From: Mobula hypostoma | Taxonomy: Eukaryota | Direction of reading: 5' to 3' | NCBI RefSeq assembly: GCF_963921235.1 | Contig: NC_086097.1 | Span: 58,158,001 to 58,222,000, forward strand | DNA: 64,000 nt | Part shown: positions 11,965-64,000 of the stretch, one piece after another | Numbering within the stretch: position 1 is the first letter of the stretch | How the letters are laid out: every line of letters begins with the position of its first letter | Program-made: the position numbers and the translations under genes | Notes under the pieces: model-generated | Database searches by the model: none | What the model saw: the letters and a program-made list of their open reading frames with translations, nothing else | Told to the model about the DNA's origin: nothing

Positions 11965-12500
11965 TTTACAGCATTGCTGCATCAATCACAGTCCCAGAGA
12001 CCCAGGATCAATCCTGACAGTGGATCTTGCCTATGTGGAGTCCACAGAATCTACAGATTTCCCCTAGATGCTCCCATATCCTCCCACACCTCAATACACG
12101 CTCACCGGTAGGTTCATTATCTGCTGTAAATTGCTCCCAGTGTAGCCACACACAAAATGTTGGAGGAACTCAGTGGGTCAGACAGTATCTATGCAGGGAA
12201 ATGGACAGTTGATGTTTCTGCTTGAGACTCTTCTTCAGGATTTGAAGCATTAACTGTTCGTTTCCTTCTATTGATACTACCTGACCTGTTGAGTTCCTCC
12301 GGCAATTGTACGTTGCTCCAGATTTCCAGCATTTTCAATCTCTCTTGTGTTGCCCCAATTTGCAGGTAGATGGCAAAAGAATTTGGGAGACTTGATTTGG
12401 ATATGAGAGAGAAAAAAATAATGCAAAAGGATACTTGATGTTTGGCAGGAATGTACTAGGTCCAAGGGCATGTTTCTGCACTGTATGACTCCTTGACTAT
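11965..12500 (+). mobile_element. Decayed V-SINE/HE1-like SINE, split by a Penelope-derived palindrome
   Basis: cacagtcccagagacccaggatcaatcctgac (tRNA-like B-box region), tcctcccacac and tgtaaattgctcccagtgt (V-domain-like). CR1-type 3' end at 12460-12500. Confidence 0.55.
12146..12345. mobile_element. Palindromic non-autonomous Penelope pLTR derivative
   Basis: Inverted arms acacacaaaatgttggaggaactcag... and ...ttgagttcctccggcaattg, homologous to the pLTR at 59500-59633. Confidence 0.8.
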
Positions 12501-24368: not shown

Positions 24369-24714
24369 CAGTGGTCCCCAACTTCCAGGCCGCGGACCGA
24401 TACATTGCCACAAAGCATGCAACGGTGCAGCGGTAGCCGGAACGCACACAGCACATCTTTAAGAAAAAAGCTGAAATAAACAAGCTAATTAGATGCCGCA
24501 TGGCACGTAAATGTCGGCGCAGATCAGAGGCGATTGCCAATTGTGTCGCCTCTGATCTGGGCCGACATTTATGTGCCGGGCGGCACCTAATTAATTAGCC
24601 TGTTTATTTCGGCTTTTTTCTTAAAGATGTGCTGGGTGCATTCCGGCTACTGCTGCACCCCTGCGTTCTTTGCGGCCCCGTATCGGTCCGCTGCCCAGAG
24701 GTTGGGGACCACTG
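24369..24714. mobile_element. hAT (Charlie-like) fold-back MITE
   Basis: Perfect 14-bp TIRs CAGTGGTCCCCAAC. 8-bp TSD gcgtaaaa/gcataaaa. The element is self-complementary over most of its length. Confidence 0.92.
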
Positions 24715-32519: not shown

Positions 32520-33924
32520 TACTGTTTATTAATGTTGAAGGCAAAATTACAGAATACTGGACAAAGGCAATTTTCTTTATATTTTGTATACTTTTGATTT
32601 TTGCATTTAGTGAAGCTTTGTCAAGCTTCGTTTCCATTTCATGAATGATTTCATACGTACAGTCAACTGTGATATCGAAAGGACTATGGGTATCTATCAA
32701 GAGCGGTGATCAGTAATGCTGTCAGTGAAACAGGTCGGTGACAATACTTTACAATTCCTGTCATGTTTGATTAGCTGGATACATAACACAATGTTATATT
32801 CATGAGTACAACATTTTGCATTGATTAGAAGGGAAATTTAATCAAACATGTTGAAAAATAAATTATTAATCAGAGTCTGTACCTTTTGAACCCTGGGCTG
32901 TTTGAATAGACTGATTGGAAACAGCGAAATGATTACACCACAAAGATGCAAAACTTTGTAAAGTATATAAATATTTAATAGATAGATGTTTTCATTTTGA
33001 TGATATTTTTAAGTAAGTTCGAGAATGTTTTTGGACACTTGCAAATATCAGAAACATTCATCAATATTTGAGCACCTTAGTGGCTTTTGACAACCAGTTC
33101 AACCCAGAATTCAGTCTCTTTCCTGGTAGAGCACTCTTGTAGGATTGCCAATCAGCAAGGTCTTCACCTGGCAGGGTCTTGGTCAAAATTATTTTCTGTG
33201 TGAAAGCTTATGCAGAGAATCCATGAGTTTTCTAGGAATGTAAGTGGCAGTTACAATGAGATGAGTTGCTTTGTACAAATTCCAGCCTATTGAATAAGCA
33301 TTGAATAAGGATGTTGAATGACTACACCCCCTTAATTTTATTCAATAATTGATCTGATTGTCTACTTGTTGCATGTGTTTGTTACAGTATACAATATTGA
33401 TCCCTAACTACAGATTGGAACAAAGGATTAGAGAAATATTAATGTCTTGTTGCTGCTTAAAATAGGAGGAAAGGATATACTACTGAGTAATTACAGGCCA
33501 GTTAATTTAATTCCAGTAGTGGATAAATTATCGGGGGAATCAATTCGGAATGGTCAGAAAGTGTATAAGGGCAGGTTGTGATTGGTTAACCTTATCGAAA
33601 TCTTTGAGGAGGCAACAAAAAGAGTCAACAAAGGTAGTGCATTTGTATGAATTTCAGCAATGTTTTGACAAGGTCCCACTGGCAAGCGAGACAAAAATAT
33701 AAAGATGTATTGCAGTGAAGGGAAAAATGTAATTGTATTGAAAATTAGCTCAGTTCTGAAACAAGTGATACTGATTTATGAGTGTTTTTATGAACTTGAC
33801 GAGGCTCAGATCTTCGTCCCTAGATTTTCTTTGCTCATGTTTATGATTTAGGCTTGAATGCAGGGAGCATAATGAAGAGGCTTACAAATTATACAACAAA
33901 ATAATCCTGTTGTAAGACTCAAAA

Positions 33925-34110
33925 ACAAGAGAAAATCTGTAGATGATGGAATTCTGAGCAACACATACAAAAGGCTGGAGGAACAGCAGGCCAGGCAGCA
34001 TCTATGGAAAAAAGCAGGACTTCAGTTTTGGCCTGAAATGTTGACTGTTCTCTTTTCCACAGATGCTCCCTTGCATGCTGAGTTCCTCCAGCGTTTTGTG
34101 TGTTTTGCTG
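33925..34110. mobile_element. Palindromic Penelope pLTR derivative
   Basis: Inverted arms gcaacacatacaaaaggctggaggaac / gttcctccagcgttttgtgtgttttgc. Confidence 0.8.
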
Positions 34111-34666
34111 TTGTAAACCTTTTGCCTTAGGAAGACTTCTGTCAAATCAGAGAAACATGAGGTCAAAGTTTCAGGGAAATGCAACAAGACAAGGTGAAAT
34201 ATGCATTAACTGCCAGGCTTCATGGAGGAGCAGAGGGAGCTTCAGGAGTATGACCACAGATCTTAAAGACAGCAGAGCAGGAATTCTACTCTAATAGGTG
34301 AACCAGTGGAAACAAAACAAAGGAGGTGATGCTGGAATTGCATACCCCACTTGTGAGGCTACTGTTTGAGTGTAACATGCAGGTCTGGTCACTGAATAGA
34401 TGTGCTTGTGTGGGAGAGGGTGAAGAAGATGAAGTTTTATTTTTCTGTATGAAGAATAGGTAACAGAGGATTCTTTTTTCTTTGGTTGGAGGTAGCTGAA
34501 CTGAGGTGTCTAAAGTTATGGAAGGCCTAGAAAGAGGAAATGGGAATAGGAGGGAGCAACTTCCCTTAGTCACAAGATCAAATCTGGAGGGTGGTGGGTG
34601 GATACAAATTTAAAGTGAATGGGAAAAGAAGTAGTGGAGAATTTAGAAAATATTTCCACTTGATGG

Positions 34667-39844: not shown

Positions 39845-40275
39845 AAACACAAGGGATTCTGCAGATGCTGGAAGTGCAAAGCAACACACACAAAATGCTG
39901 GAAGAAGTCAGCATCTATGAAAATGAATTACCAGTCGATGAAAGCTCTCTGCTTCTTTCTCGGAAAAACACCTGACCAGTTCACCTCCGCCACCACCTTC
40001 CTTTATCTGGCAGGACTCGTCTTCACCCTCAAAAGTTTCTCTTTCAGCTCCTCACACTTTCTGCAAACGCAAGGGCACCCTTGGACCATGCACATCTGCA
40101 TGGGCCCCAGCTAATCCTGCAATTTTGTTGGCTACGTGGAACAGTCCTGGTAACATGCTACATTGATGACTGTACTGGTGCTACTTAATGCACCAATGAT
40201 GAGCTCATTAATTTTGTTAACTTTGCCTCCAACTTCCACTCTATCCTTAAAATGACTTGGTCCATTTCTGACCTT
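39845..40275 (+). mobile_element. Penelope fragment: inverted pLTR piece (39845-39940) joined to an RT core remnant
   Basis: catgggccccagcta (MGPSY-like) and tacattgatgactgt (YIDDC). Confidence 0.75.
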
Positions 40276-41835: not shown

Positions 41836-44269
41836 TTCATCTAGGCTACTCTGACAGCATCTTCCAAACCAGTGTTAGTTAAATGTCTGCAATGGACTTC
41901 AACTCATTGCAAATCCCTTTAAGGTAGAGGAAAGAACTACAAGAGCACTAGCCAGATTAACGCAGGTTCACATTCACATTAACTAAGAAGAACAAGATTC
42001 CTTCGGTATTTTGTTTTCTTTAAATCTTTTCCTTTGTCTCACCAAAGTCCACATTCCATGGACACTGCACTTAGTGGGCACCGTAGTTTCTGCTCAGACA
42101 TGCTCTGTTTGGCAGAACCCACTGACTTATATCCACATTCCACAAACTCTGACTCCACTGACAGTAACTTCAGTTCACCAATTCTTGCCAGTTACTAATT
42201 TAACTGTGTAAGGAACCTCACTGGCACTTATCCTTACTTACTACTGCAAATGAAAACTACTTGATTAGGAAAGTCTGACCGTAAAACTAACAAACAAATA
42301 AATACCTTCCTCAACAAAGTCTACACTCTGTGGGTGTTGTACACAGTGGCTGTGTATGCTCTGAATTTTTTTGCAGTGTTTGAAGTTTTAAAATCAAAAC
42401 AGTTGAACATACACCCAAGTGAGGTGGTTATCTATAAGGATTGCCATAATTTATGTTTATAAATATTGTTGCTTAAAAATGTCTAGTTCATTATTTTTAT
42501 TTTGGCTGTACCTCTTCCATCCCTTTCCTGAAAAGATGCATTTTTTTTTCTGGTTGCAAATGTGAAGTTTTGTTCTCAAATCTGAGAATAACCATATGCG
42601 CAGTGATTCAAAGTGTGTGTATCAAACTCAACAGATGTCTAGCTATCCTGGAAGAGCATTTCAGGATAAGAGAAAAAATATGTTTTAAAATGTAATCTGA
42701 TAATCAACTGCTTTCTATCAACTATATTTCTTCAGGATTTTTAGAAAAATCATATCATTAAGTGGAAGTAATAGGAAATTGTTTCATTAAAAATTATGTG
42801 GCACACATGAAGTATCAAATATCTTAATGCATGTCAACTCCTATTGGATAAAGAGTGAAAACTTTCTACTTGTTGCTTGTGCTATTAAGTACATAATTGT
42901 TTGAAAATTTAAAAAATATAATATTTCTGTCCTAGACCAATGAAATTCAATACAAAATTAAAGTTGAAAGTAGAATCCAACAACAACTCTGGAAATGACC
43001 AGAGATAGATTTAAGTTAGTGAGGTGTAAAATACAGTATTAGCTTCTGCTGTGTGGGTAGGTTAGATTTTAAAACATCTAATTAGTTTACATATGAATTA
43101 TAATTTACATATTATCTCAGTCCTTCATTGTTATTGTTTATTAAGGTTGTTCGCTGCTCTACAGAGAGAATTTCAAATAATATTGACTTTTATCAAAACG
43201 GCTGTTGAACCTGGACAAGATTCTAAGAGGAATAGACGCCAATGAGCTAGTTTCTAGCTTTTGTGCTATTATATTTAAAATTGATATAATCCTAACGTAT
43301 GAATTTCAGATCAACTTATAATTTTACGATCAAGAGAAGAGAAGTGATTTAATGTTCTTGACTCATTCATGCTGGTAGCAGAGTCCAGCCTGACTGAGTT
43401 TCATTTTTCCATTTTGCTAACCATTAATAGTTGCTATGTTCAAGAAAATATTTTGAACATATTGGCTGGTATTATGTACCTATCTCTATTCTATTACATA
43501 CTCATATTATATCTACACACAACACTGTAAGAGGCCAGTTCCCATTATAAATGAATGTTTCACTGCATTTAAGGTTATCAGTATTAACAAGTCCTATCTA
43601 CAATTTGAATACACTTCAGTTGCAATGATCAAGAAACCCCCACTGCTTTAACATTGTTAGAAGTTTAAGAAGATGAAGGATAGACAGGCAAGCAGGCCGT
43701 TTGTCCACTTGCATCTTCCTATTTAATAACTGCTACCTTCCAGCACTTATCCCCTGATTGTCTGAACGTTCAAAAGTCAATTGCTCCCTGTCTCAATTAA
43801 AATCAGCAACTGAACCTGTACAGCACAATACGCTTGGGTAAAGGATTCTGAAATGTTGCTGCACTCTGTACTCTGCCTTGAGCAGCCAACTCTGAGTTTC
43901 AGACACTGATCTCTGGCTAGAGACACTGCAGCCAGGGCAATTACACTGTCAAGTCCCAAAAGAATATTGAACCTGAGATTGCTGGTTATCTATAATTACA
44001 GAGTTCACTGTTTCATACTGTGAATAGATCAGGCAGAAGATGAAATGCTGTTTCTCAAGCTTAGGTCAAACTTTGTGGGACAGCAGAAGTGGCCAAGATT
44101 AAGGAGGTCTGAGTAGGATGGAGAATTAAAATAACAGGTGTCTGGCAGCTCAGCTTCCCTTCGCTGTTGTGTAAAACAATTACCAATGGAGAGGGCACCA
44201 CCTTGTAAGCATCAAATTGTTGTAACCACGTTGTAATCACACTAAATTCAGAGACATACAAATGAAATT

Positions 44270-44680
44270 CTGCCTCATCTTGAAGGAATGAATAGGAACC
44301 TTAATCTTGGAAAGGGAAGAGGTAAAAGAGCAAGTGTTCATCTCCTATAGTTGCATGGAACGTGTCATGAGAAGCACAGTACACAGGGGAACTGTCAAGC
44401 AAGCAATCCCTTTGGATTGCTGAAGGAGGAAGGCAGTGCTGGAATCATGTTAGAAGTGGGAGAAATAATGCAGAATGATTCTTTGAACTCAGAAGCTGAT
44501 AGGTTGGAAGATGAAGACAAGCAGCAAAGGAGATCCACATTTACGCTCTTGGTGCAGCAAGAATGAGTGAAAAGTAAATTGTAGGAATGAGAACGTGGTT
44601 TGAAACAATTGCTACCAAAGATGCTGCCTGACTGGGTGAGTATTTACTTGGTTTTCTGTCTTTACTCTCAGAGGTCAGTC
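44270..44680 (-). mobile_element. Decayed Penelope fragment
   Basis: Residual similarity to the GIY-YIG-proximal region; pLTR remnant at 44620-44665. Confidence 0.45.
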
Positions 44681-47291
44681 AGCCTCCAGAGAAGCAAACA
44701 TTGAAAGGCATGCATTTCAATAGAATTGCAAAATTGTTACAGATGGAATAGCTGCTTGAAAGAAAAGCAAGACCTTGGTAGATGACATTAAAAGTTATTT
44801 GAGCAAAGCTGTGAAAAATAACATGTAAATAATGGTAATACTGAACTGCCCACTAAATAGCAAAAGAGTAAGATTGATCATATTAATATCTGTCATATCT
44901 GCAGCATTTTTGCTTTTTGAATATTCCGTTCTCAATATGATTCATTCTATTTAAATACATAACGTCATTAAACTGATGACCAAGGTTGCCCTTGTCATGG
45001 CTGATTGGCCTTCGTTCATCTGAAACTAAACATTAATGCTCCATTAAGTCATGCAGCCTCCCTCTGGAGCATAATTCCACCACATTATAGCATGGCATCA
45101 ATCCACCAAGTAACTGATTTGCTCTCTTTAACTGTTCTCAATCCCTTGTGCATACTAGCTCGTGGTTCCTCGTTGCACACATACTGTTTCCTTCTTCACT
45201 TGCACAAAGAGGACAGTCTCCCAGTGACCTAAACCTTCCTTTAACCGGCCACTTTTTCTATCCCTGCTGTTTTCAACCTGACCTCATCGTCAGCCCCCAG
45301 TATCCAGACAAAGCTCAAAATTCAGGAATAGGATCTAACTTTAATTTTCTGAGTGTTCTGTGGCTTTCTGAGTGGAACTCAGAGTTATTCCAGATTTTGT
45401 CCACGTCTTCAAGTTAAATTACAGTATTGGCTGTGCTGATGCAATTTGAAATAGTCAGGGCTGGGAAAGATAAATATGTATTTTGGGGCACAAGAGACCC
45501 TTCAGCAGGTTATAATGCAGGTTGAGTGACCTGCCAAAGGATAGTTTCCTCAAAATGAGAAATAAGTCTTTAGAACCCAGGTTTAAAACACAAGACATTT
45601 CAGGTCATTATGGGTCTAGATTGTTCTATGTTCATGGTTGTATTTCCGTACTTCATGTTGTTACAAAACAAGAAACAGACATTTTCTGCAGCGATCCCCT
45701 TTAGGTAACTCACATTCATCCAAAGCTACAAGAGTGAGTCAGACAATTAATTCCCTGATAGAAAGATTATGGGGATGCTAAAGTTACTGTGAGTACTAGA
45801 CTCTTTTGTTGGTTCTGGATTCTGGACTGATAACGTCCTTCATCATCCTTTATTCTGTAAGTAAATACAAAACCGAAGTGGAATTGTACTGTATCATATG
45901 AGATAGCGAGATAATGAAACGTATGGTTTCTTTTGGAGTCATGCCAGTAAAATAAAACTATACACATTAATCACTGCGATCCAACAAGTTCAACAGCTGA
46001 AATTCCTTTTTACATTAGAAAGTGAAACAGTGAGGATATGATGATTATCTGTACTCTTTGAAGGTTTTTTGCTGCCTTGAGGATTAGTGTGCCTTGCTGC
46101 ACAAGCAGTTTCCAGTATTAAAAATTAATCTCATTGTGACAGATACAATACCTACAGTGTCTATGTATCACCTTTGCAAACACCAAGGCTCTCAGATGGC
46201 TAAAGTTCTTTTTTTTTTAATTGGAATTCTGTTTGTTAATTACGGTTAGAAGTTAAAAAAAGGGAAACTTTTGTAATCCAAGTTGTCTTGCTTGATTTTG
46301 AAATCTTAGTATCCTACTTACTTGAGGTGAAGATTCCAGTTCATATTAATATTGATATTCAGATATTTTTGATATTCAGGTCTTTTTTAGAAACTGATTT
46401 CCTTTAAGGAACATATCAGATTATCTAATCTAGTTAAAGATACCAAGTCCAACTATCTAGTATAATTCAAGCAGGCTATAGATTTCTGCATATTGGATTG
46501 TCCTGGATCTTGCTGCTTGAGGTCCTGCCAGCCTACATTTAATTTTTTAAATGTGGTGACCTGAATTAACTGACTCTCTACGCCCTACAAGGTGGAGCAG
46601 TGTCTGAGTGGCACATAAAACTGTTTTATTCTGAAACCTAATCTCTGAAAAGATCTGACACCTTCTAATTGATTGCCCACTGATAAAGACAGCAAAGTTT
46701 TGGATGTCCTTCATGTTTAGTGACCCATAAAAAGTAGCCCCAAAATGGACTTAAACAACTAAACAAATTATTAGTAAAGTGAAAAGAACTTAAAAACACA
46801 TTTAAATGTTAACACCTAACTTGGAAAGATTAAAAAAATACAAAGTACTAGGCACTACCAAGTTCAGTACTGATGTTTCTCCACAGTATCAGACGGATGG
46901 GGTAGCCAGTGGTACTCCTGCCCTCCCTGGCATAAAGCTGGGGGCTGGGTGTGAAGTGCATCTGGAACTTCCTTCAGTGAGTAACTGCTCTGTCCCAGGG
47001 ATCCATGGAGTCTCGTGAATTGGCATCTCACACCCCCCACCCCCCAAGCTCGTCACATACTTCCATCTTCCACCACTCGCATGCAGTCAGTCACAGAATG
47101 CTCTACACTTGCACTGGCTCCAGCCTTCGTGATTTTAAATGCCTTTATCAGATCTTGTTACAAGGAGAGCAACACCGATTTCTGCAGTATTTCTACATAA
47201 CCGAAGCCCTTCCTGGAATCATTTTGGTAAATTTCTTCTGACAAAAGATTCATGTTTTACACTGTCTTGTTATTAGACCAGAGAAAAAATA

Positions 47292-47430
47292 TTCAGTCCT
47301 GATGAAGGGTCTTGGCCCAAATCATCGACAGTTTACTCTTTTTCATAGATGCTGCCTGGCCTACTGAGTTCCTCCGGCATTTTGTATGTTTTGCTTGGAT
47401 TTCCAGCATCTGCAGATTTTCTCTTGTTTG
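47292..47430 (+). mobile_element. Solo Penelope pLTR beginning at a degenerate hammerhead
   Basis: agtcctgatgaagggtcttggccc...gatgctgcctggcctactgagttcctcc; homologous to 59500-59633. Confidence 0.85.
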
Positions 47431-47649
47431 AAAAAGTATACACCCTTCTTTAGTAGTTTCCTCTGATCTATACTGTAGATATCTCTGAGTAAAACTTACC
47501 AGCTCTCTTAAAATAGTCTAAGTTGTTTCCCAACTACTTTACACACTACCATTTTTTTGGTATCTTTTGTTCCATTTTCTAAGATGTTCTTTGCTACAAA
47601 AACCAACCAATCTCACTTATGATACTTTCTTTCTTCTAATTACACAATG

Positions 47650-54317: not shown

Positions 54318-55080
54318 AAACACAAGAGATTCTGCGGGTGCTTAAATCTAGAGTAACACACACACACAATTCTGGCGGGTCAGGCAGCATCGATAGAAAG
54401 AAATGCACAATTGATGTTTCGGGCCAAGGCCCTTCATCGAGGCTGGAAAGAAAGAGGGAAAAAGCCAGAGTAAGAAGGAGTACAAGCTAGAAGGTGATAG
54501 GTGAAGATGTGAGGGGGAAGATAGATGAATGGTGAGGAGGATGAGTGAGAAGGTGGGAGGTGATAGGACTGAAAAGGTAAGAAATAGAAAAGGTAAAGGA
54601 CTGAAGAAGAAAGAATCTGATAGGAGAGGAGGGTGAATCATGGGAACAAGGGAAGGAGAAGGGACACCAGGGGGAAGTTATCTGCAGGTAAGGAAAAAAG
54701 AAGAGGTGAGAGGGGAGCCAGAATGGGGAGCAGGGAATGGAAAAAGAGAGAAGGGGTAGGGGTAAGAAATTACTAGGAATGAGAGAAATCAGTGTTTATA
54801 CCATTAGCTTGGAGGCTACCCAGACAGAATATGAGGTGTTGGTTCTCCAACCAGAGTGGCATTAGAGGAGGCCATGAGTCTGCATGTCAGAAAGGGAACG
54901 GGGCTTGGTCTTAAGATGGTTGGCCACCAGGAGATCCTGCTTGTTGTGGACAGAGCAAAGATACTGGACAAAGCGGTCCCCTACACTGCATCAGGTCTCA
55001 CTGATATAGAGGAGGCCAGACAAAGAGCACCAGATACAGTAGGTGAGCCCAATAGGCTCGCAGGTGAAGTGTTGCTCCAC
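54318..55080 (-). mobile_element. Penelope-like element 3' part (GIY-YIG end, pyrimidine tract, pLTR)
   Basis: Antisense homology to 58880-59633. Confidence 0.85.
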
Positions 55081-55501
55081 ATTTGATCCACTTTTATTGT
55101 GCTTTAGTTGCCTTCACCCCTCTACTGTCAGCGTTATTTGGCCAACATCTTTTCACTGCTTTGATTTATGCCCAGGATTAAGTAACCCTGAGTTAATGAT
55201 CAAATCTTTTTTGGAGATGTATTTTGCACTCATTCATTGCCTTGTAAGGAACAACTTTTAAAAATGAATGCAATAAAATGGGTATATGGCTTGAGTTGAG
55301 GAATGGGATTGATGCAATTGCGATCATGGACCGGGAGCAAAAAGGCCGTCTTCCATGTTGTAAGGAATTGCAAATATGGAACAAGTGACATAAATCGAAA
55401 ACGACTGCATTTGGCAGTGATAATCAAATTATTAAATATCTTTTCATTCAATATTAATATTCACCCTGTGTATTAAGTAAAGTGGACTAAACTAATTGCG
55501 A

Positions 55502-55705
55502 AGCAACACACATAAAATGCTGAAAGAACTTAGCAGGTCAGGCAGCAAATGGAAAAGAGCAAACAGTCGACGTTTCGGGCCTGATGAAAGGTCTCGGCCT
55601 GAAATGTCGATTTTTCATAGATGCTGCCTGACCCGCTGAGTTCTTCCAGCATTTTGTGTGTGTTGCTTTGGATTTCCAGCATCTGCAGATTTTCTTGCGT
55701 TTGTG
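55502..55705. mobile_element. Palindromic Penelope pLTR derivative with a central hammerhead core
   Basis: Arms aagcaacacacataaaatgctg / cagcattttgtgtgtgttgctt. CTGATGA...GAAATGTC at 55581-55608. Confidence 0.9.
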
Positions 55706-56289
55706 TAATTTAATTGCATATTAATTTCTTTTTGTGCAACAGAATTGTTTAGATATTATAATTTTAGTAAAGGAAACCTCAGTGGTAGTTTTGATGCAGA
55801 AGTAAATAGTTAATCTGTTTTTCAAAATGTCTATCACTATTTGCTGTTGAAATTCTAAAATATTTTTCAGATGCTATATTGTCACACCAAGCTTCGTAAC
55901 ACTGTATTAGAATGATTTCATTTTTGCTGGTGGACTTGACAGTGTTAAAGCTGACTCTGTGAAGACTTCTGGTGAAATGTGTCACTGTGGAAGTTACATT
56001 AAAGCCAGACATGCAACATCTCATTTGAAAGAGCCTATTTTATGGTTAGAGGCAAGAGTCTGCTCTCACAGTTACTGCATTAACAGTTGCTTGCGATGAT
56101 TTGAAATGAAATCTGTTGTCATCAGGATCTGATTCAGTTTGACATTCTTTATAAATAATCTTTGGGATTTATGTGGGTCAGAATCCTGACTGACACCCAC
56201 AGAGTCTAAACAATGGACTAAAAAGTAAGAATCACACATCAGGCTTGATTTATTTACAAAGGGTGAAACAAAGGCTGGGGATGAGAGAG

Positions 56290-56928: not shown

Positions 56929-57459
56929 CACTCAATGGCCACTTACTAGGTACACCTGCAAATACCTAATCTGACAATTATGTAGTAGCAACTGAATACA
57001 TAAAGCATGCAGACATGCTCGAGAGGTTCAGTTGTTGTCCAGACCAAACATCAGAATGGGGAAGAAATGTGATCTAGGCAGATTGGATGGTAGAATGATT
57101 GTTGGTGCCAGACAGGGTAATATGAGTATCTCAAAATGTTGATCTCCTGGGATTTTCACATATAACGTTGTCTAGAATTCACAGAGAATGGTGCAGGAGA
57201 CACAACAACAAAAAAAAATTCCAGCAAGCGGCAGTTCTGTGGGCGAAAATGTCTTGTTAATGAGAGAGGTCAGAAAGAATAGCTAGCTTGACAGTAACTC
57301 AAATTACCATGGTTTACAATAGTGATGCGCAGAAGAGCATCTCTGAATGCACAAGATGTCGAACCTTGAAGTAGATGGGCTACAACAGAAGACCATGAAA
57401 ATACACTCGCTGGCTATTTTATTAGGTAGACGGGGACCTAATTAAGTGGCCACTGAGTG
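56929..57459 (+). mobile_element. Non-autonomous Tc1 element with a transposase N-terminal remnant and three TIR copies
   Basis: TA-flanked TIRs CACTCARTGGCCACTT; MGKKCDL..MIVGARQG HTH remnant from ~57056; extra left-type TIR at 57404. Confidence 0.9.
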
Positions 57460-57599
57460 TAGATGATTCTTTAAAATTGAACTGAAATAACTGAACAGGC
57501 CTGAAGGGACAAATGACTGTCTCCTGCTATTATTTCCTATTTCTGTATTAGCTGGGTTTCACACATTTTAAGGAATTGCTTATCAGGGAGTGGATTATT

Positions 57600-57950: not shown

Positions 57951-58330
57951 GAGAATCCCTGAAATATAGGAAAGTGTATGAAATCCTGCAAAGCTTTGGA
58001 ACTATTAAAAGCTTGGCTTGAAATGTTTGACCAGCACAAAAGGTAGAACATCAAAGGTACAGCCCAGGAAGCTCAGGCTTTTCTAATATTGTGGATGACA
58101 CGAAGTGTGGTTGATGGAAGGGAAAATTTTCTTCCATGTCAAATGTCCATCGTGTGGGCAGGCACAGAGATGAGGAGGCAGAGCTAGGGTCATGTTCAGA
58201 GCACTTGTTGAAACCAGCATACCTGGTGTCAAAGGAGCTCAATTCCTCTCAAATGAATATCTTCCTGATGTACCCACAATACCCCGAGCGAGTCTAGTCG
58301 CATTTCAACTTGACTCACAAAGAATCTCAC

Positions 58331-59214
58331 AGTCTACTGACTCTCACAGCTATCTGGACTATTCCTCCTCTCACCCTGTCTCTTACAAAAACGCCATCCC
58401 ATTCTCGCAATTCCTCCGTCTCCGCCGCATCTGCTCTCAGGATGAGGCTTTTCATTCTAGGACGAGGGAGATGTCTTCTTTTTTTAAAGAAAGGGGCTTC
58501 CCTTCCTCCACTATCAACTCTGCTCTTAAACGCATCTCCCCCATTTCACGTACATCTGCTTTCACTCCATCCTCCCACCACCCCACTAGGAATAGGGTTC
58601 CCCTGGTCCTCACCTACCACCCCACTAGCCTCCGGGTCCAACGTATTATTCTCCGTAACTTCCGCCACCTCCAACGGGATCCCACCACTAAGCACACCTT
58701 TCCCTCCCCACCTCTCTCTGCATTCCGCAGGGATCGCTCCCTACGCAACTCCCTTGTCCATTCGTCCCCCCCCATCCCTCCCCACTGATCTCCGTCCTGG
58801 CACTTATCCGTGTAAGCGGAACAAGTGCTACACATGCCCTTACACTTCCCCCTTACCACCATTCAGGGCCCCAAACAGTCCTTCCAGGTGAGGCAAAACT
58901 TCACCTGTGAGTCGACTGGGGTGATATACTGCGTCCGGTGCTCCCGATGTGGCCTTTTATGTATTGGCGAGACCCGACGCAGACTGGGAGACCGCTTTGC
59001 TGAACATCTACGCTCTGTCCGCCAGAGAAAGCAGGATCTCCCAGTGGCCACACATTTTAATTCCACATCCCATTCCCATTCTGACATGTCTATCCACGGC
59101 CTCCTCTACTGTAAAGATGAAGCCACACTCAGGTTGGAGGAACAACACCTTATATTCCATCTGGGTAGCCTCCAACCTAATGGCATGAACATTGACTTCT
59201 CTAACTTCCACTAA
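58331..59214 (+). pseudogene. Penelope ORF C-terminal part, one frameshift near the C-run at ~58770-58790
   Basis: ORFs 58192-58788 and 58825-59214 join into RT thumb, CxxxxCxxC linker and GIY-YIG domain. Confidence 0.9.
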
Positions 59215-59501
59215 GGCCCCACCTCCCCCTCGTACCCCATCTGTTACTTATTTTTATGCACACATTCTTTCTCTCACTCTCCTTTTTCTCCCTCTGTCCC
59301 TCTGAATATACCTCTTGCCCATCCTCTGGGTCCTCCCCCCCCCCCTGTCTTTCTTCCCGGACCTCCTGTCCCATGATCCTCTCGTATCCCCTTTTGCCTA
59401 TCACCTGTCCAGCTCTTGGCTCTATCCCTTCCCCTCCTGTCTTCTCCTATCATTTTGGATCTCCCCCTCCCCCTTCAACTTTCAAATCCCTTCCTTCAGT
59501 T

Positions 59502-59537
59502 AGTCCTGACGAAGGGTCTCGGCCTGAAACGTCAACT
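59502..59537 (+). ncRNA. Minimal type I hammerhead ribozyme motif in the Penelope pLTR
   Basis: AGTC-CTGACGA-AGGgtctcggCCT-GAAAC-GTC-AACT: intact core, stem II, palindromic loopless stem III (ACGT) and a GUC site. One mismatch in stem I. Confidence 0.8.
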
Positions 59538-59994
59538 GCACCTCTTCCTACAGATGCTGCCTGGCCTGCTGCATTCACCAGCAACTTTGATGTGTGTTGC
59601 TTGAATTTCCAGCATCTGCAGAATTCCTGTTGTTCACAAAGAATCTGTCCTGTTCACTCAAATCAAGGAATCAAGCTCAAGGGATGCAACTGAACAAACT
59701 CCTCCCTATACTATAACACTTACCCATAGGCTTGTGTCTTGCCCATGGGTTTCAGTCTAATGTTGTCTGGTTGTGATGAATCCAGAGACCTATGATGGGG
59801 ACTTCAACAAAGTAGAAAAGCAAGGTTTTGCACCCATCCTTGGCAATAATACAGTTCAGTAGATGGGGCTGATGAAAGTATATCACAACAGGATCGTAGA
59901 GGTAGCTAAACGAACACAGGCAAACTACAACTACTGATGGACGAAAGTCCTGCTATGGCTGAGAATGAGGATGAAGCCTAAGTATTACTACTAT

Positions 59995-61340
59995 CAAAAG
60001 CAACACACAGTAAATGCTGGAGGAAATCAGCAGGTCAGGAAATAGAAATGGATCAACAGTTGACATTTTGGGTCGAAACCCTTCTTCAGGAGTGGAAAGG
60101 AAGGGGATAGACACCAGAATAAAAAGGTGAGGGGAGGGGAAGAAGGATAGATAGACAGTGATAGGTGAAGCCATGTGGGTTGGAAAGATAAAGGGCTGGA
60201 GAGGAAGGAATCTAATAGGAGAGGAGAATGGACCGTAGGAGAAAGTGAAGTTGGAGAGGACCCAGGGGAGGTGATAGGCAGGCAAGAAGAGGTAAGAGAC
60301 CAGAGTGGGAAATAGAAGAAGAGGGAAGAGGAGAGGGATTTTTTTTTACCAGAAGGAGAAATTGTTATTCATGCCATCAGATTGGAGGCTACCCAAAAGG
60401 AGTACAAGGTGTTGCTCCTCCACTCTGTGGGTTGCCTCATCTTAGCACATGTCAGATTGGGAATGGGAATTAAAATATTTGGCCACAGGGAAGTTCTGTT
60501 TTTGGAGATAGAGCAGAGGTGCTCAACGAAGTGATTCACCCAATTTATGATGGGTCTCACCAGTGTAGAGGAGGTCACATCGGGAGCACTGGACACAATA
60601 AACAATTCCAGTAGATTCGCTGGAGAAGTATTGCCACACCTGGAAGGACTGTTTGGTGCCCTGAATTGAGGTGAGGGAGGAGGTGTATGGGCAGTGTAGC
60701 ACATTGGCTGCTTGCAGGGTTAAGTGCTGGGATGGAGATTAATGGGGATGGAAGAATGGACATGGGAATCACAGAGGGAGTGATCCCAGCCGCAAGTGGA
60801 GAGAGGGAGGGATGGAGGTAAAGATATGTCTGGTGGTAGGGTCCTTTTGGAGATGGCAACAGTTGTGGAGAATGATGTTTTGGATTAGGAGGTGGTGAGC
60901 AAGGACAGGAAGAATTCTATCGCTGTTAAAGTGGTGGGAAGATAGGGTGAGTCCAGCTGTTCTTGACATGGAGGACATGCAGGTGAGGTTTACATCAATG
61001 GTGGAGGAAAGGAAACCTCGTTCTTTGAAGAAGGAGGACATCTCTGATGCCTTGCAAAGCAAAAGTGCATCAAGGGAACACATGCAGCAGAGTCAGAGGA
61101 ACTGAGAAAAGGGAATAGCATTTTCACAAGAGACAGGGTAAGAAGAGATATAGTCAAGATAACCATGGGAATCAGTAGGTTTACAAGAGATGTTGGCCAA
61201 TGCTTTGTCTCCAGAGATGAAGACAGAGACATTGAGAAAGGGGAGGGAGGTGTCAGAAATGGACCAAGTGAGTTTAAGGGCAGGATGGAAGTTAGAGACA
61301 AGTTTGATGAAACCTATTGATATCAGATGTGGCTTCAAAT
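59995..61340 (-). mobile_element. Older Penelope-like element, tail-to-tail with the young copy
   Basis: NFHPALKLTWSISDTSLPFL..KPTDSHGYLDY..AIPFSQFL. pLTR with a degenerate hammerhead at 60057-60093. Confidence 0.9.
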
Positions 61341-62515: not shown

Positions 62516-64000
62516 CAGGTGTTCCCCACTTTTCGAATATTCACTTTACGAAACCTCACTGTTATGAAAGACCTACATTAGTACCCTGTTTTCGCTTTCA
62601 AAAGGTGTTTTCACTGTTACGAAAAAAAGCGCACGCGAAAAAATCAGCTCGTGATAAAAGGCAGTGCACGCCCCGAGCAGCTGCTCTCCCCCGGATTCGG
62701 GACTGCAATCTCGCCGACATTGCTTAAACACATGCCTGTGAGCAGCCATTTGCAAGATGAGTTCTAAGGTATCGGAAAAGCCTGAAAGAGCTCGTAAGGG
62801 TGTTACACTTAGCGTAAAACTAGACATAATTAAGCGTTTCGATCGTGGTGGACGAAGTAAGGACTAAGTGAGTTTGGCTTGTGGAAGCTGATGAACATGA
62901 TGTTGAAGAGATTTTGGCGTCCCATGACCAAGAACTGATAGATGAAGAGCTGATGCAATTGGAAGAGGAAAGGATAACAACTGAAACTGAATACAGTAGC
63001 GAACAGACCGAAAGTGAATTCGTCCAGGAACTGAACGTGAAGCAACTGCGTGAGATTTTCACTGCAATGATAAAGTATGACTTTAATTTTGAAAGGGTAC
63101 GTCGGTTTAGGGGATATTTGCAGGATGGTTTGAGTCCTTACAGAGAACTGTATGATAGAAAAATGCACGAGGCTCAGCAGTCAAGCAAGCCTTCCGCATC
63201 AGCCACAGCAGACGATGAACCTCGACCTTCGACATCGAGGCAGGCAGTCATAGGAGAAGATGAGCTGCCTGCTCTAATGGAAACAGACGACGAGATGACA
63301 CCCCATTGTCCCACCACCCCACGATTCGCAGAGAATGCAACGGTAGCCGGGACGCACACAGCACATCTTTAAGAAAAAAGCCAAAATAAACATGCTAACT
63401 AATTAGGTGCCGCCCGACACGTAATTAATTAGCATGTTTATTTTGGCTTTTTTCTTAAAGATGTGCTGTGTGCCTCCCGGCTACCGCTGCATTCCTGCAT
63501 GCTTCGTGGTTCGGTATCTGTCGGTGGCCTGGAGGGTGGGACCACTGCACCATCCCAACCTGTGACGACTCAGTCTAACACACCCTCATCAGTGTGCTCG
63601 GCGCTGAACCAATTCCGGTAAGTGATACTACACTGTACATACATTATTTCTACTTTATATTGGCTATGTATTTTTACGTGTTATTTGGTATGATTTGGCA
63701 GCTTCATAGCTTAAAGGTTACTGGAGAGCACTTGCGCCGTGTTTTTGCCAACAGCGCTTGCGTGAGATTTTCTGCCGACGGCGCTTGCGTGAGATTTTTG
63801 CTACGGAGAGCAGTGCAGTAATGATTGTGGAAAAGTATTTCTACTTTATATAGGCTGTGTATTTATCATATCATTCCTGCTTTTATGACATGTTACTGTC
63901 ATTTTAGGTTTTATGTGTTATTTGGCATGATTTGGTAGGTTATTTTTGGCTCTGCGAACGCTCACAAAATTTTCCCATATAAGTAAATGGTAATTGCTTC
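62516..64000 (+). mobile_element. Internally deleted Tigger/pogo DNA transposon (runs off the window end)
   Basis: TA then CAGGTGTTCCCCACTTTTCGAA TIR. 62757-62867 encodes MSSKVSEKPERARKGVTLSVKLDIIKRFDRG (CENP-B/psq HTH start), joined directly to the acidic C-terminus DVEEILASHDQELIDEELMQLEEE. No DDE domain. Confidence 0.88.
63304..63547. mobile_element. hAT-MITE-derived fold-back segment inside the Tigger element
   Basis: 72-bp inverted arms at 63334-63405 and 63422-63493, homologous to 24369-24714. Right end gggtgggaccactg resembles the hAT TIR. Confidence 0.8.

Follow-up and report, generated by a model that had tools for sequence, protein, structure and literature searches.

Palindromes built from the end of a Penelope-like element

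The window (the whole stretch of 64,000 nucleotides analysed here) contains three palindromes, at 55.5k, 12.2k and 33.9k, each made of two head-to-head copies of the last ~100-137 nt of a Penelope-like element (PLE). Positions within the arms are numbered from the first base after the hammerhead GTC (+1), with a solo copy at 47293-47430 serving as the ruler (+1 = 47327). Alignment confirmed both arms and junctions, in agreement with an earlier note on this DNA that had described three non-coding palindromes made of two inverted Penelope pLTR copies. A profile built from the arms detected 11 strong arms in 8 insertions in the window and nothing else below E 0.009, while the same profile run against the reversed window gave nothing below E 4. 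A fragment at 44.6k, from a more distant family, is excluded from the count of 11 arms. The repeats of the window may point to a cartilaginous fish as host. The palindromes, the solo copy and a fused inverted copy are as follows.

55501-55705, minus-strand arm then plus-strand arm: 55.5k palindrome
55501..55581, minus strand: tailless inverted pLTR arm of 55.5k, +70 to -13, stopping in stem II of the hammerhead, on its 3' strand
55580..55705, plus strand: tailed pLTR arm of 55.5k, -29 to about +104
12146-12351, minus-strand arm then plus-strand arm: 12.2k palindrome
12146..12240, minus strand: tailless inverted arm of 12.2k, reaching -30 and containing a whole degenerate hammerhead (12211-12238)
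12241..12351, plus strand: tailed sense arm of 12.2k, from the GAAAC equivalent (-7 to -13)
33920-34109, minus-strand arm, centre remnant, plus-strand arm: 33.9k palindrome
33920..34014, minus strand: tailed inverted arm of 33.9k, stopping at about +10
34015..34026, no strand: centre remnant of 33.9k, 7 nt antisense (34015-34021) and 5 nt sense of the hammerhead 5' edge
34025..34109, plus strand: tailless sense arm of 33.9k, from stem II (-18) to +69
47293..47430, plus strand: solo tailed pLTR, -34 to +104
39845..39941, minus strand: tailed inverted pLTR at 39.8k, stopping at -5 and fused to a broken sense RT body
39942-40272, plus strand: the broken RT body fused to the 39.8k arm, with a YIDD motif

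The plus-strand arm of the 55.5k palindrome begins at -29 (CCTGATGA) and carries a 10-nt deletion directly after the cut site. Its two arms have the CC at 55580-55581 in common, a 2-nt microhomology, and their ends at -13 and -29 match the earlier description of an antisense arm stopping in stem II and a sense arm starting from CTGATGA. The palindrome has a predicted folding MFE of -117 kcal/mol (z -14.3), and none of 200 shuffles was equally stable. At 12.2k the sense start is placed at -7 by local alignment, at -11 by MAFFT and at -13 if the GA at 12239-12240 is shared by both arms; the whole degenerate antisense hammerhead that had been reported beside a sense arm starting at the GAAAC equivalent was seen at 12211-12238. 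This palindrome seemingly lies inside an older SINE-like repeat (12100-12400), which may blur its target duplication.

The start of the 33.9k sense arm at -18 is in stem II, and that of the solo pLTR at 47293 (-34) is at the ribozyme, both as previously claimed. Both words of the 33.9k centre occur together in 0.0001 of 20,000 random 15-mers, a test that was post hoc, and the antisense 7-mer alone occurs in 6.6% of them. The letters of the remnant suggest that both arms may once have reached about -32/-34. Internal deletions are common in these pLTR arms. The stretch at 39845-40272 has the classic PLE layout, and its frameshifted sense RT body breaks off at 40272.

Coding copies in the window

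Three arms continue through a pyrimidine-rich 3'UTR into coding sequence:

54318..55095, minus strand: decayed 5'-truncated PLE with a tail, running on past the hammerhead to the 3'UTR and the GIY-YIG region
58328..59634, plus strand: 5'-truncated coding PLE (58.3k) with the RT C-terminal part, a Cys-rich linker, GIY-YIG, 3'UTR, hammerhead (59506-59533) and tail; its frame is broken
59997..61312, minus strand: decayed 5'-truncated PLE without a tail, continuing through the hammerhead

Since the arms continue into GIY-YIG/RT coding bodies, we conclude that they are the end of a PLE. The same terminal sequence is joined to an ORF with RT and C-terminal GIY-YIG, as expected of an EN+ PLE. The GIY-YIG region at 58816-59211 scored E 0.014 in Pfam, below the curated cut-off, and GIY-YIG clusters were matched in the ESM Atlas at 0.96. 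In the 58.3k copy the GIY-YIG frame follows the motif CKRNKCYTC; a Cys-rich feature of this kind is named for the Neptune clade of PLEs (PMC3846280, in its accessible parts), which is a candidate placement for this family.

The 58.3k insertion with its flanks (58315-59646) is a young, nearly intact 5'-truncated PLE and would be good bait for the active family. Elsewhere, 44110-44665 holds a very decayed antisense PLE body that belongs to the more distant family. At the 5' end of that body is a short piece of pLTR in sense orientation (44608-44641), beginning downstream of the hammerhead.

The hammerhead in the pLTR

A strict core scan of the window gave four matches, three in pLTR copies, where the core is intact (55581-55608, 59506-59533 and 12211-12238), and one unrelated. 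Since Rfam returned no hammerhead family at E<=1, the ribozyme was identified through the core motif and the description in PMC4209133. By this sequence evidence, the pLTR carries a minimal type I hammerhead, represented in the 55.5k palindrome by:

55581..55608, plus strand: minimal type I hammerhead core, CTGATGA ... GAAA..GTC, with its stem I partner lost to the 10-nt deletion

In the solo copy, stems I and II are predicted to form, with P 0.75-0.98 for most pairs. Forcing the hammerhead core in predicted foldings costs 19.4 kcal/mol in the 55.5k palindrome; the solo copy needs 5.2 and the long copy 10.8. In these models, the hammerhead of a palindrome transcript is buried in the long hairpin. 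The probability of stem II is 0.000 in the palindrome and, since it is also 0.000 in the long copy in its context, is uninformative by itself.

At the 5' edge of the hammerhead, three of four copies hold the word YYANWYY, which we take to be an initiator-like motif and which has a background of 11.7 per kb; the same bases can also be read as a polypyrimidine-CAG splice acceptor. Both motifs are weak, the word is frequent and the bases allow a double reading, and neither was used as evidence. Rfam matches to psbJ and to miRNAs in the window were dismissed as generic hairpins. A 66-nt hairpin at 57399-57464, with a sub-threshold Rfam miRNA score of 38.8 against 80 bits, is probably a small palindromic repeat.

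Outer ends, tails and target duplications

The outer ends fall at +102 to +104 in seven arms, at +69/70 in three and at about +64 in one. The palindrome arms use two end sites, +69/70 and +102-104, which are ~35 nt from each other, and each arm of a palindrome has a different one. A ~35-nt (34-35 nt) PLE tail, which the earlier note did not remark on, is present on exactly one arm in all three palindromes, and in all three the 5' end differs from the reverse complement of the 3' end. The palindromes thus show the PLE arrangement, in which an inverted pLTR is truncated at 5' and a single end carries a tail of 30-40 nt.

Target duplications (TSDs) were tested at seven insertions, with edges set from alignments and 6 nt of slack that was also given to the null; the 39.8k insertion, whose far end is missing, was outside the test. 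The 58.3k insertion has an exact 13-nt duplication (58315-58327 / 59634-59646; 0/3000 null sites), and the solo copy has one of 10 nt with one mismatch (47283-47292 / 47430-47439; p 0.019). For the palindrome at 55.5k the duplication is:

55493..55499 (left) and 55711-55717 (right), plus strand: 7-nt TSD, null p 0.016

Five of these 7 nt occur again at 55706-55710. A candidate TSD at 33.9k (13 nt with two mismatches, 33907-33919 / 34108-34120) is borderline at p 0.064, and in the remaining three of the seven insertions tested no TSD was found (p 0.21 at 12.2k). Duplications are thus supported in 3/7 insertions and borderline in one, with lengths that vary (7, 10 and 13 nt).

Neither inverted terminal repeats nor a constant 2/3/8-bp TSD with one fixed structure, as in a MITE, was found. 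Because the termini are asymmetric and TSD lengths vary, these are not DNA MITEs; the one-sided tail, the variable TSDs and the coding PLE copies with the same end uphold the earlier view that the elements are not DNA transposons.

Another palindromic family in the window, at 24370-24714 and 63333-63548, has matching termini (CAGTGGTCCCCAAC); its 63k copy is partial and forms a near-perfect 80-bp hairpin. This family resembles a hAT-type DNA MITE.

Inner ends lie in and beside the hammerhead

The inner ends of the arms are at -34 in the solo copy, -30 and about -11 at 12.2k, -29 and -13 at 55.5k, -18 and about +10 at 33.9k, and -5 at 39.8k. In the window, 8/11 arms therefore stop in a 47-nt span from -34 to about +10 of the cut site; the other three are long, and none of the 11 stops in the 3'UTR. 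Counted per arm, the clustering has P values of 1e-8 to 5e-3 under log-uniform or exponential truncation nulls, and counted per insertion, with two chances each, of 6e-4 to 0.40. Since the per-insertion P extends to 0.40 and the span was chosen post hoc, we regard clustering of the junctions in or beside the hammerhead, seen in few copies, as likely and not as established.

None of the eight inner ends is at +1, and seven of them keep sequence 5' of the cut, which is absent from a self-cleaved 3' product. We conclude from these two observations that self-cleavage does not set the ends. The proposal of the earlier note that the ribozyme delimits a mobilised RNA unit fails, in the catalytic sense, on the same points and on the outer ends, which are ~70/~104 nt downstream. 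The ribozyme region may still help, without catalysis, to position the junction, which is a modest lead. The 55.5k and the 12.2k junctions both allow a reading in which -29/-30 meets -13 and 2 nt overlap, although three C-to-T changes are needed for it at 12.2k. Taken with the 33.9k centre remnant, this shared reading of the sequences points to preferred junction sites.

The junctions differ between palindromes, there are two sequence subtypes, and the tail is on different inner arms (on the longer, -29, at 55.5k and on the shorter at 12.2k), all of which supports the earlier suggestion of repeated independent formation. The 12.2k arms have 12 and 9 changes in common with the long copy at 54k, and the 55.5k and 33.9k arms group with the solo copy. 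Identity between the arms of one palindrome is 0.89, 0.86 and, for the third, 0.70, compared with 0.63-0.84 in 12 cross-palindrome pairs. Counts of shared private variants gave no separation (5, 9 and 3 in same-insertion pairs; mean 4.1 and maximum 12 in others) and are confounded by the subtypes.

Copies in sequencing-run contigs

Contigs of four sequencing runs, one of them (X17) possibly of RNA, were aligned to the solo copy; the depth profile tracks the mismatches of that copy and was not used. The three DNA runs, which carry different organism codes, yielded 65,316, 62,016 and 64,804 contig pieces, figures that are not copy numbers. The tail end is sharp, with loose ends at 47429/47430 in 1026 + 2276 contigs of run X1 and a similar picture in X5 and X13. 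Of 148 counted joints between pieces, to which some uncounted ones must be added, 15 were listed, and these are examples and not a distribution. Head-to-head joints among those listed take two forms, one inside the ribozyme, -28/+5 (three contigs, X13), and one outside it, +13/+72 (four contigs in X13, one in X5).

Also among the listed joints are opposite-strand joints of outer ends (47385-47394 to 47430), a tail-to-tail layout with 1-5 contigs per form per DNA run that is absent from the window and possibly reflects insertions into the end of another copy. A further listed joint leads from the tail end to a start at the hammerhead 5' edge (47430 to 47294; 9, 7 and 3 contigs); with its intervening letters unread, it is ambiguous between 137-nt head-to-tail dimers, which would be retrozyme-like, and two nearby copies. 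Joints skipping 73-79 and those from 47417-47421 to 47346 were read as alignment artefacts. Exact-pattern scans gave no matches in viral contigs and, in JGI metagenomes, none and then one locus with merely a 24-nt hammerhead-like match; the 11 GTDB matches were confined to about 20-29 nt and treated as chance.

How the palindromes may have formed

We conclude that the palindromes are short head-to-head insertions of PLE ends, that is, ordinary PLE insertion debris, and are not ribozyme-cut. As to mechanism, two primings from both target nicks, early stops near the hammerhead 5' edge and microhomology joining are on balance probable. Each palindrome would then be a one-off product of an endonuclease-bearing PLE and not a replicating unit. 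By analogy with the biochemistry of the Anolis PLE, the RT-GIY-YIG protein would nick the two target strands at positions separated by 7-13 nt. Reverse transcription would then begin from each 3'-OH, at either of two start sites inside an uncleaved RNA. Both cDNAs would halt early near the hammerhead 5' edge, either because the pLTR copy used is near the 5' end of the RNA or because the RT stalls, and would be joined head-to-head by 1-2 nt of microhomology, anew at each insertion, with some centres later trimmed by deletion. If only one cDNA halted there, the classic inverted pLTR with a long body (39.8k) would result, and if only one were retained, a solo pLTR (47.3k). The RT sequence to which the 39.8k arm is joined is not contiguous with it, so that insertion requires either a template switch or priming a second time. 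Also in favour of the two-priming mechanism are the tail on exactly one arm in all three palindromes, as PLEs are described to have it (PMC8557442 and PMC3846280), the sharp tail end in the contigs, the TSDs of 13, 7 and 10 nt, and a single subtype for both arms of an insertion, with identities of 0.89 and 0.86.

In the Anolis PLE, the tail is the span between two RT start sites and the protein cleaves and extends both strands (PMC11167929); outer ends ~70/~104 nt downstream would, on this analogy, fit two PLE reverse-transcription start sites. Mutating the hammerhead of that element leaves its insertion product unchanged, and the cut is not the end point of any RNA-seq read (PMC11167929). Helix I in D. 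virilis marks the end of an intron (PMC4209133), and transcription starts ~120 nt further upstream (PMC2377424 with PMC4209133), according to the accessible parts of the sources; because of that distant start, the reading of the hammerhead edge as an RNA 5' end is unproven. What counts against the two-priming mechanism is that its priming on both strands is taken from Anolis, that the arms of the third palindrome are only 0.70 identical, that the shared-variant counts gave no separation, that the clustering of inner ends is not clear per insertion and that 3/7 insertions are without a TSD.

Two of the junction results also count against it, since the common reading of the 55.5k and 12.2k junctions, which belong to different subtypes, and the -28/+5 joint fit fold-back self-priming equally well. 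Here an antisense strand (RNA or cDNA) ending near the hammerhead 5' edge would copy itself after folding back, with stem I or II of the ribozyme serving as the short inverted repeat. Resolution by the endonuclease would leave the tail on either arm; self-priming was proposed in Arkhipova 2013 (PMC3846280, in its accessible parts). The stem I prediction, -33/+6, is near the -28/+5 joint, and the arms share a subtype. However, priming would be by only 2 bp, the RT sequence that adjoins the inverted arm at 39.8k comes from a part of the element distant from the pLTR, and the +13/+72 joint is outside the ribozyme. Extra trimming would also be needed, because each arm at 12.2k and 33.9k holds sequence absent from its partner. 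We consider fold-back unlikely, though a serious rival.

A variant that would modify, and not exclude, the two-priming mechanism is that the palindromes began as near-perfect mirrors centred at about -32, the hammerhead 5' edge, and were later altered by deletions. The antisense 7-mer and sense 5-mer of that edge kept at the 33.9k centre are consistent with it, as are the cluster of ends formed by the solo copy, the 12.2k left arm and the 55.5k right arm (-34, -30 and -29) and the frequency of internal deletions, but random sequence often contains the 7-mer by itself (6.6%), both words were tested together only post hoc, and the 39.8k arm ends at -5. This history seems improbable.

We would likewise give little credence to the idea that the hammerhead is a template-pairing device, in which two PLE RNAs would dimerise via the palindromic helix III, a protein dimer would prime at +70/+104 and the cDNAs would join at the ribozyme. 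If true, it would account in one step for three features, namely the inverted pLTR, the tail on one side only and the fact that hammerheads which cleave poorly are conserved, and tens of thousands of copies would be a fossil record of PLE integration with the signature -29/-30 to -13.

Still further from the data is the proposal of RNA-mobilised, retrozyme-like units with ends made by hammerhead self-cleavage, as advanced in the earlier note. It would account for 8/11 arms having their junctions within or next to the hammerhead; processing of PLE RNA has been proposed as a function of PLE hammerheads (PMC4209133), and head-to-tail retrozymes derive from pLTRs (bioRxiv 10.64898/2026.07.22.740005), both as stated in the accessible parts of these sources. 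Against it, no inner end is at +1 and 7/8 lie upstream, the outer ends are 70-104 nt from the cut, and the junctions differ; the palindrome hammerhead is predicted to be sequestered (at the cost of 19.4 kcal/mol) and has lost stem I at 55.5k; and in Anolis cleavage is dispensable, with no reads ending at the cut (PMC11167929). In this window the self-cleavage proposal is largely refuted, and we hold it to be very improbable.

A DNA-transposon MITE family that captured pLTR sequence would be about 200 bp, palindromic, non-coding and abundant, as these elements are (about 62,000-65,000 contig pieces per DNA run, which are not copy numbers), but judged by sequence it is already refuted and has next to no probability, with a 35-nt tail on one side only, varying TSDs, differing junctions and a different look from that of a DNA-type element here, 24370-24714, with its matching termini and 8-nt flank duplication (one mismatch).

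Comparison with known systems

The layout seen here is already published: inverted pLTRs, a one-sided tail, variable TSDs and solo pLTRs are described in the accessible parts of PMC3846280, PMC8557442 and PMC8969392. A hammerhead hot spot for the junctions was not found in print and rests on few copies, and we offer it as a modest lead; no published mapping of inversion junctions onto the hammerhead was found in a search that had Repbase/Dfam and subscription journals outside it. The origin of the inverted pLTRs and the purpose of PLE hammerheads are open questions, as far as the accessible parts of PMC8557442 and PMC11167929 go, and abundant minimal insertions reduce the PLE product to its junctions.

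Canonical EN+ PLE insertions, in the accessible parts of PMC3846280 and PMC8557442, are alike in having a head-to-head inverted 5'-truncated pLTR, a 30-40 nt tail on one end, solo pLTRs, a small offset or overlap at the inverted junction and a variable TSD, there of 8-10 nt. In the present case, however, the arms are too short for coding sequence, which leaves a MITE-like 200-bp hairpin, and the junctions crowd into the hammerhead. In the Anolis Poseidon element PAc studied in vitro (Frangieh 2024, PMC11167929), the tail is delimited by two internal RT start sites, about 85-92 nt past the cut. There the protein nicks both strands and extends them, as is proposed here, and cleavage is dispensable; the main text of that study does not deal with inverted products. 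PAc belongs to a different family, whereas the PLE described here has a Cys-rich linker and may be Neptune-like.

Pairs of minimal type I hammerheads with one on each strand, separated by 100-700 bp, are also reported in Schistosoma mansoni, together with dispersed single ones; both are ascribed to truncated PLEs in the accessible parts of Cervera & de la Pena 2014 (PMC4209133). Here, in contrast, the hammerhead regions of the two arms touch or overlap one another, and as a rule a single core survives. Animal non-LTR retrozymes resemble the palindromes in being pLTR-derived and non-coding with a type I hammerhead (bioRxiv 10.64898/2026.07.22.740005, in its accessible parts), but they are head-to-tail tandems with a hammerhead per unit, whereas the palindromes are head-to-head with the hammerhead broken or buried. 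No head-to-tail tandem array with complete hammerheads was present among the seven TRF rows for the window.

Finally, the Xenopus Harbinger repeat and MITEs are likewise self-folding repeats of about 200 bp that would probably give strong dsRNA if transcribed, and palindromic repeats are editing targets, according to the accessible parts of PMC5625713. The palindromes differ from them in having neither symmetric TIRs nor a constant TSD and in their retroelement origin, and such elements can be mis-annotated as MITEs. If transcribed, they would give ~90-bp hairpins, which by extension from PMC5625713 may be ADAR targets.
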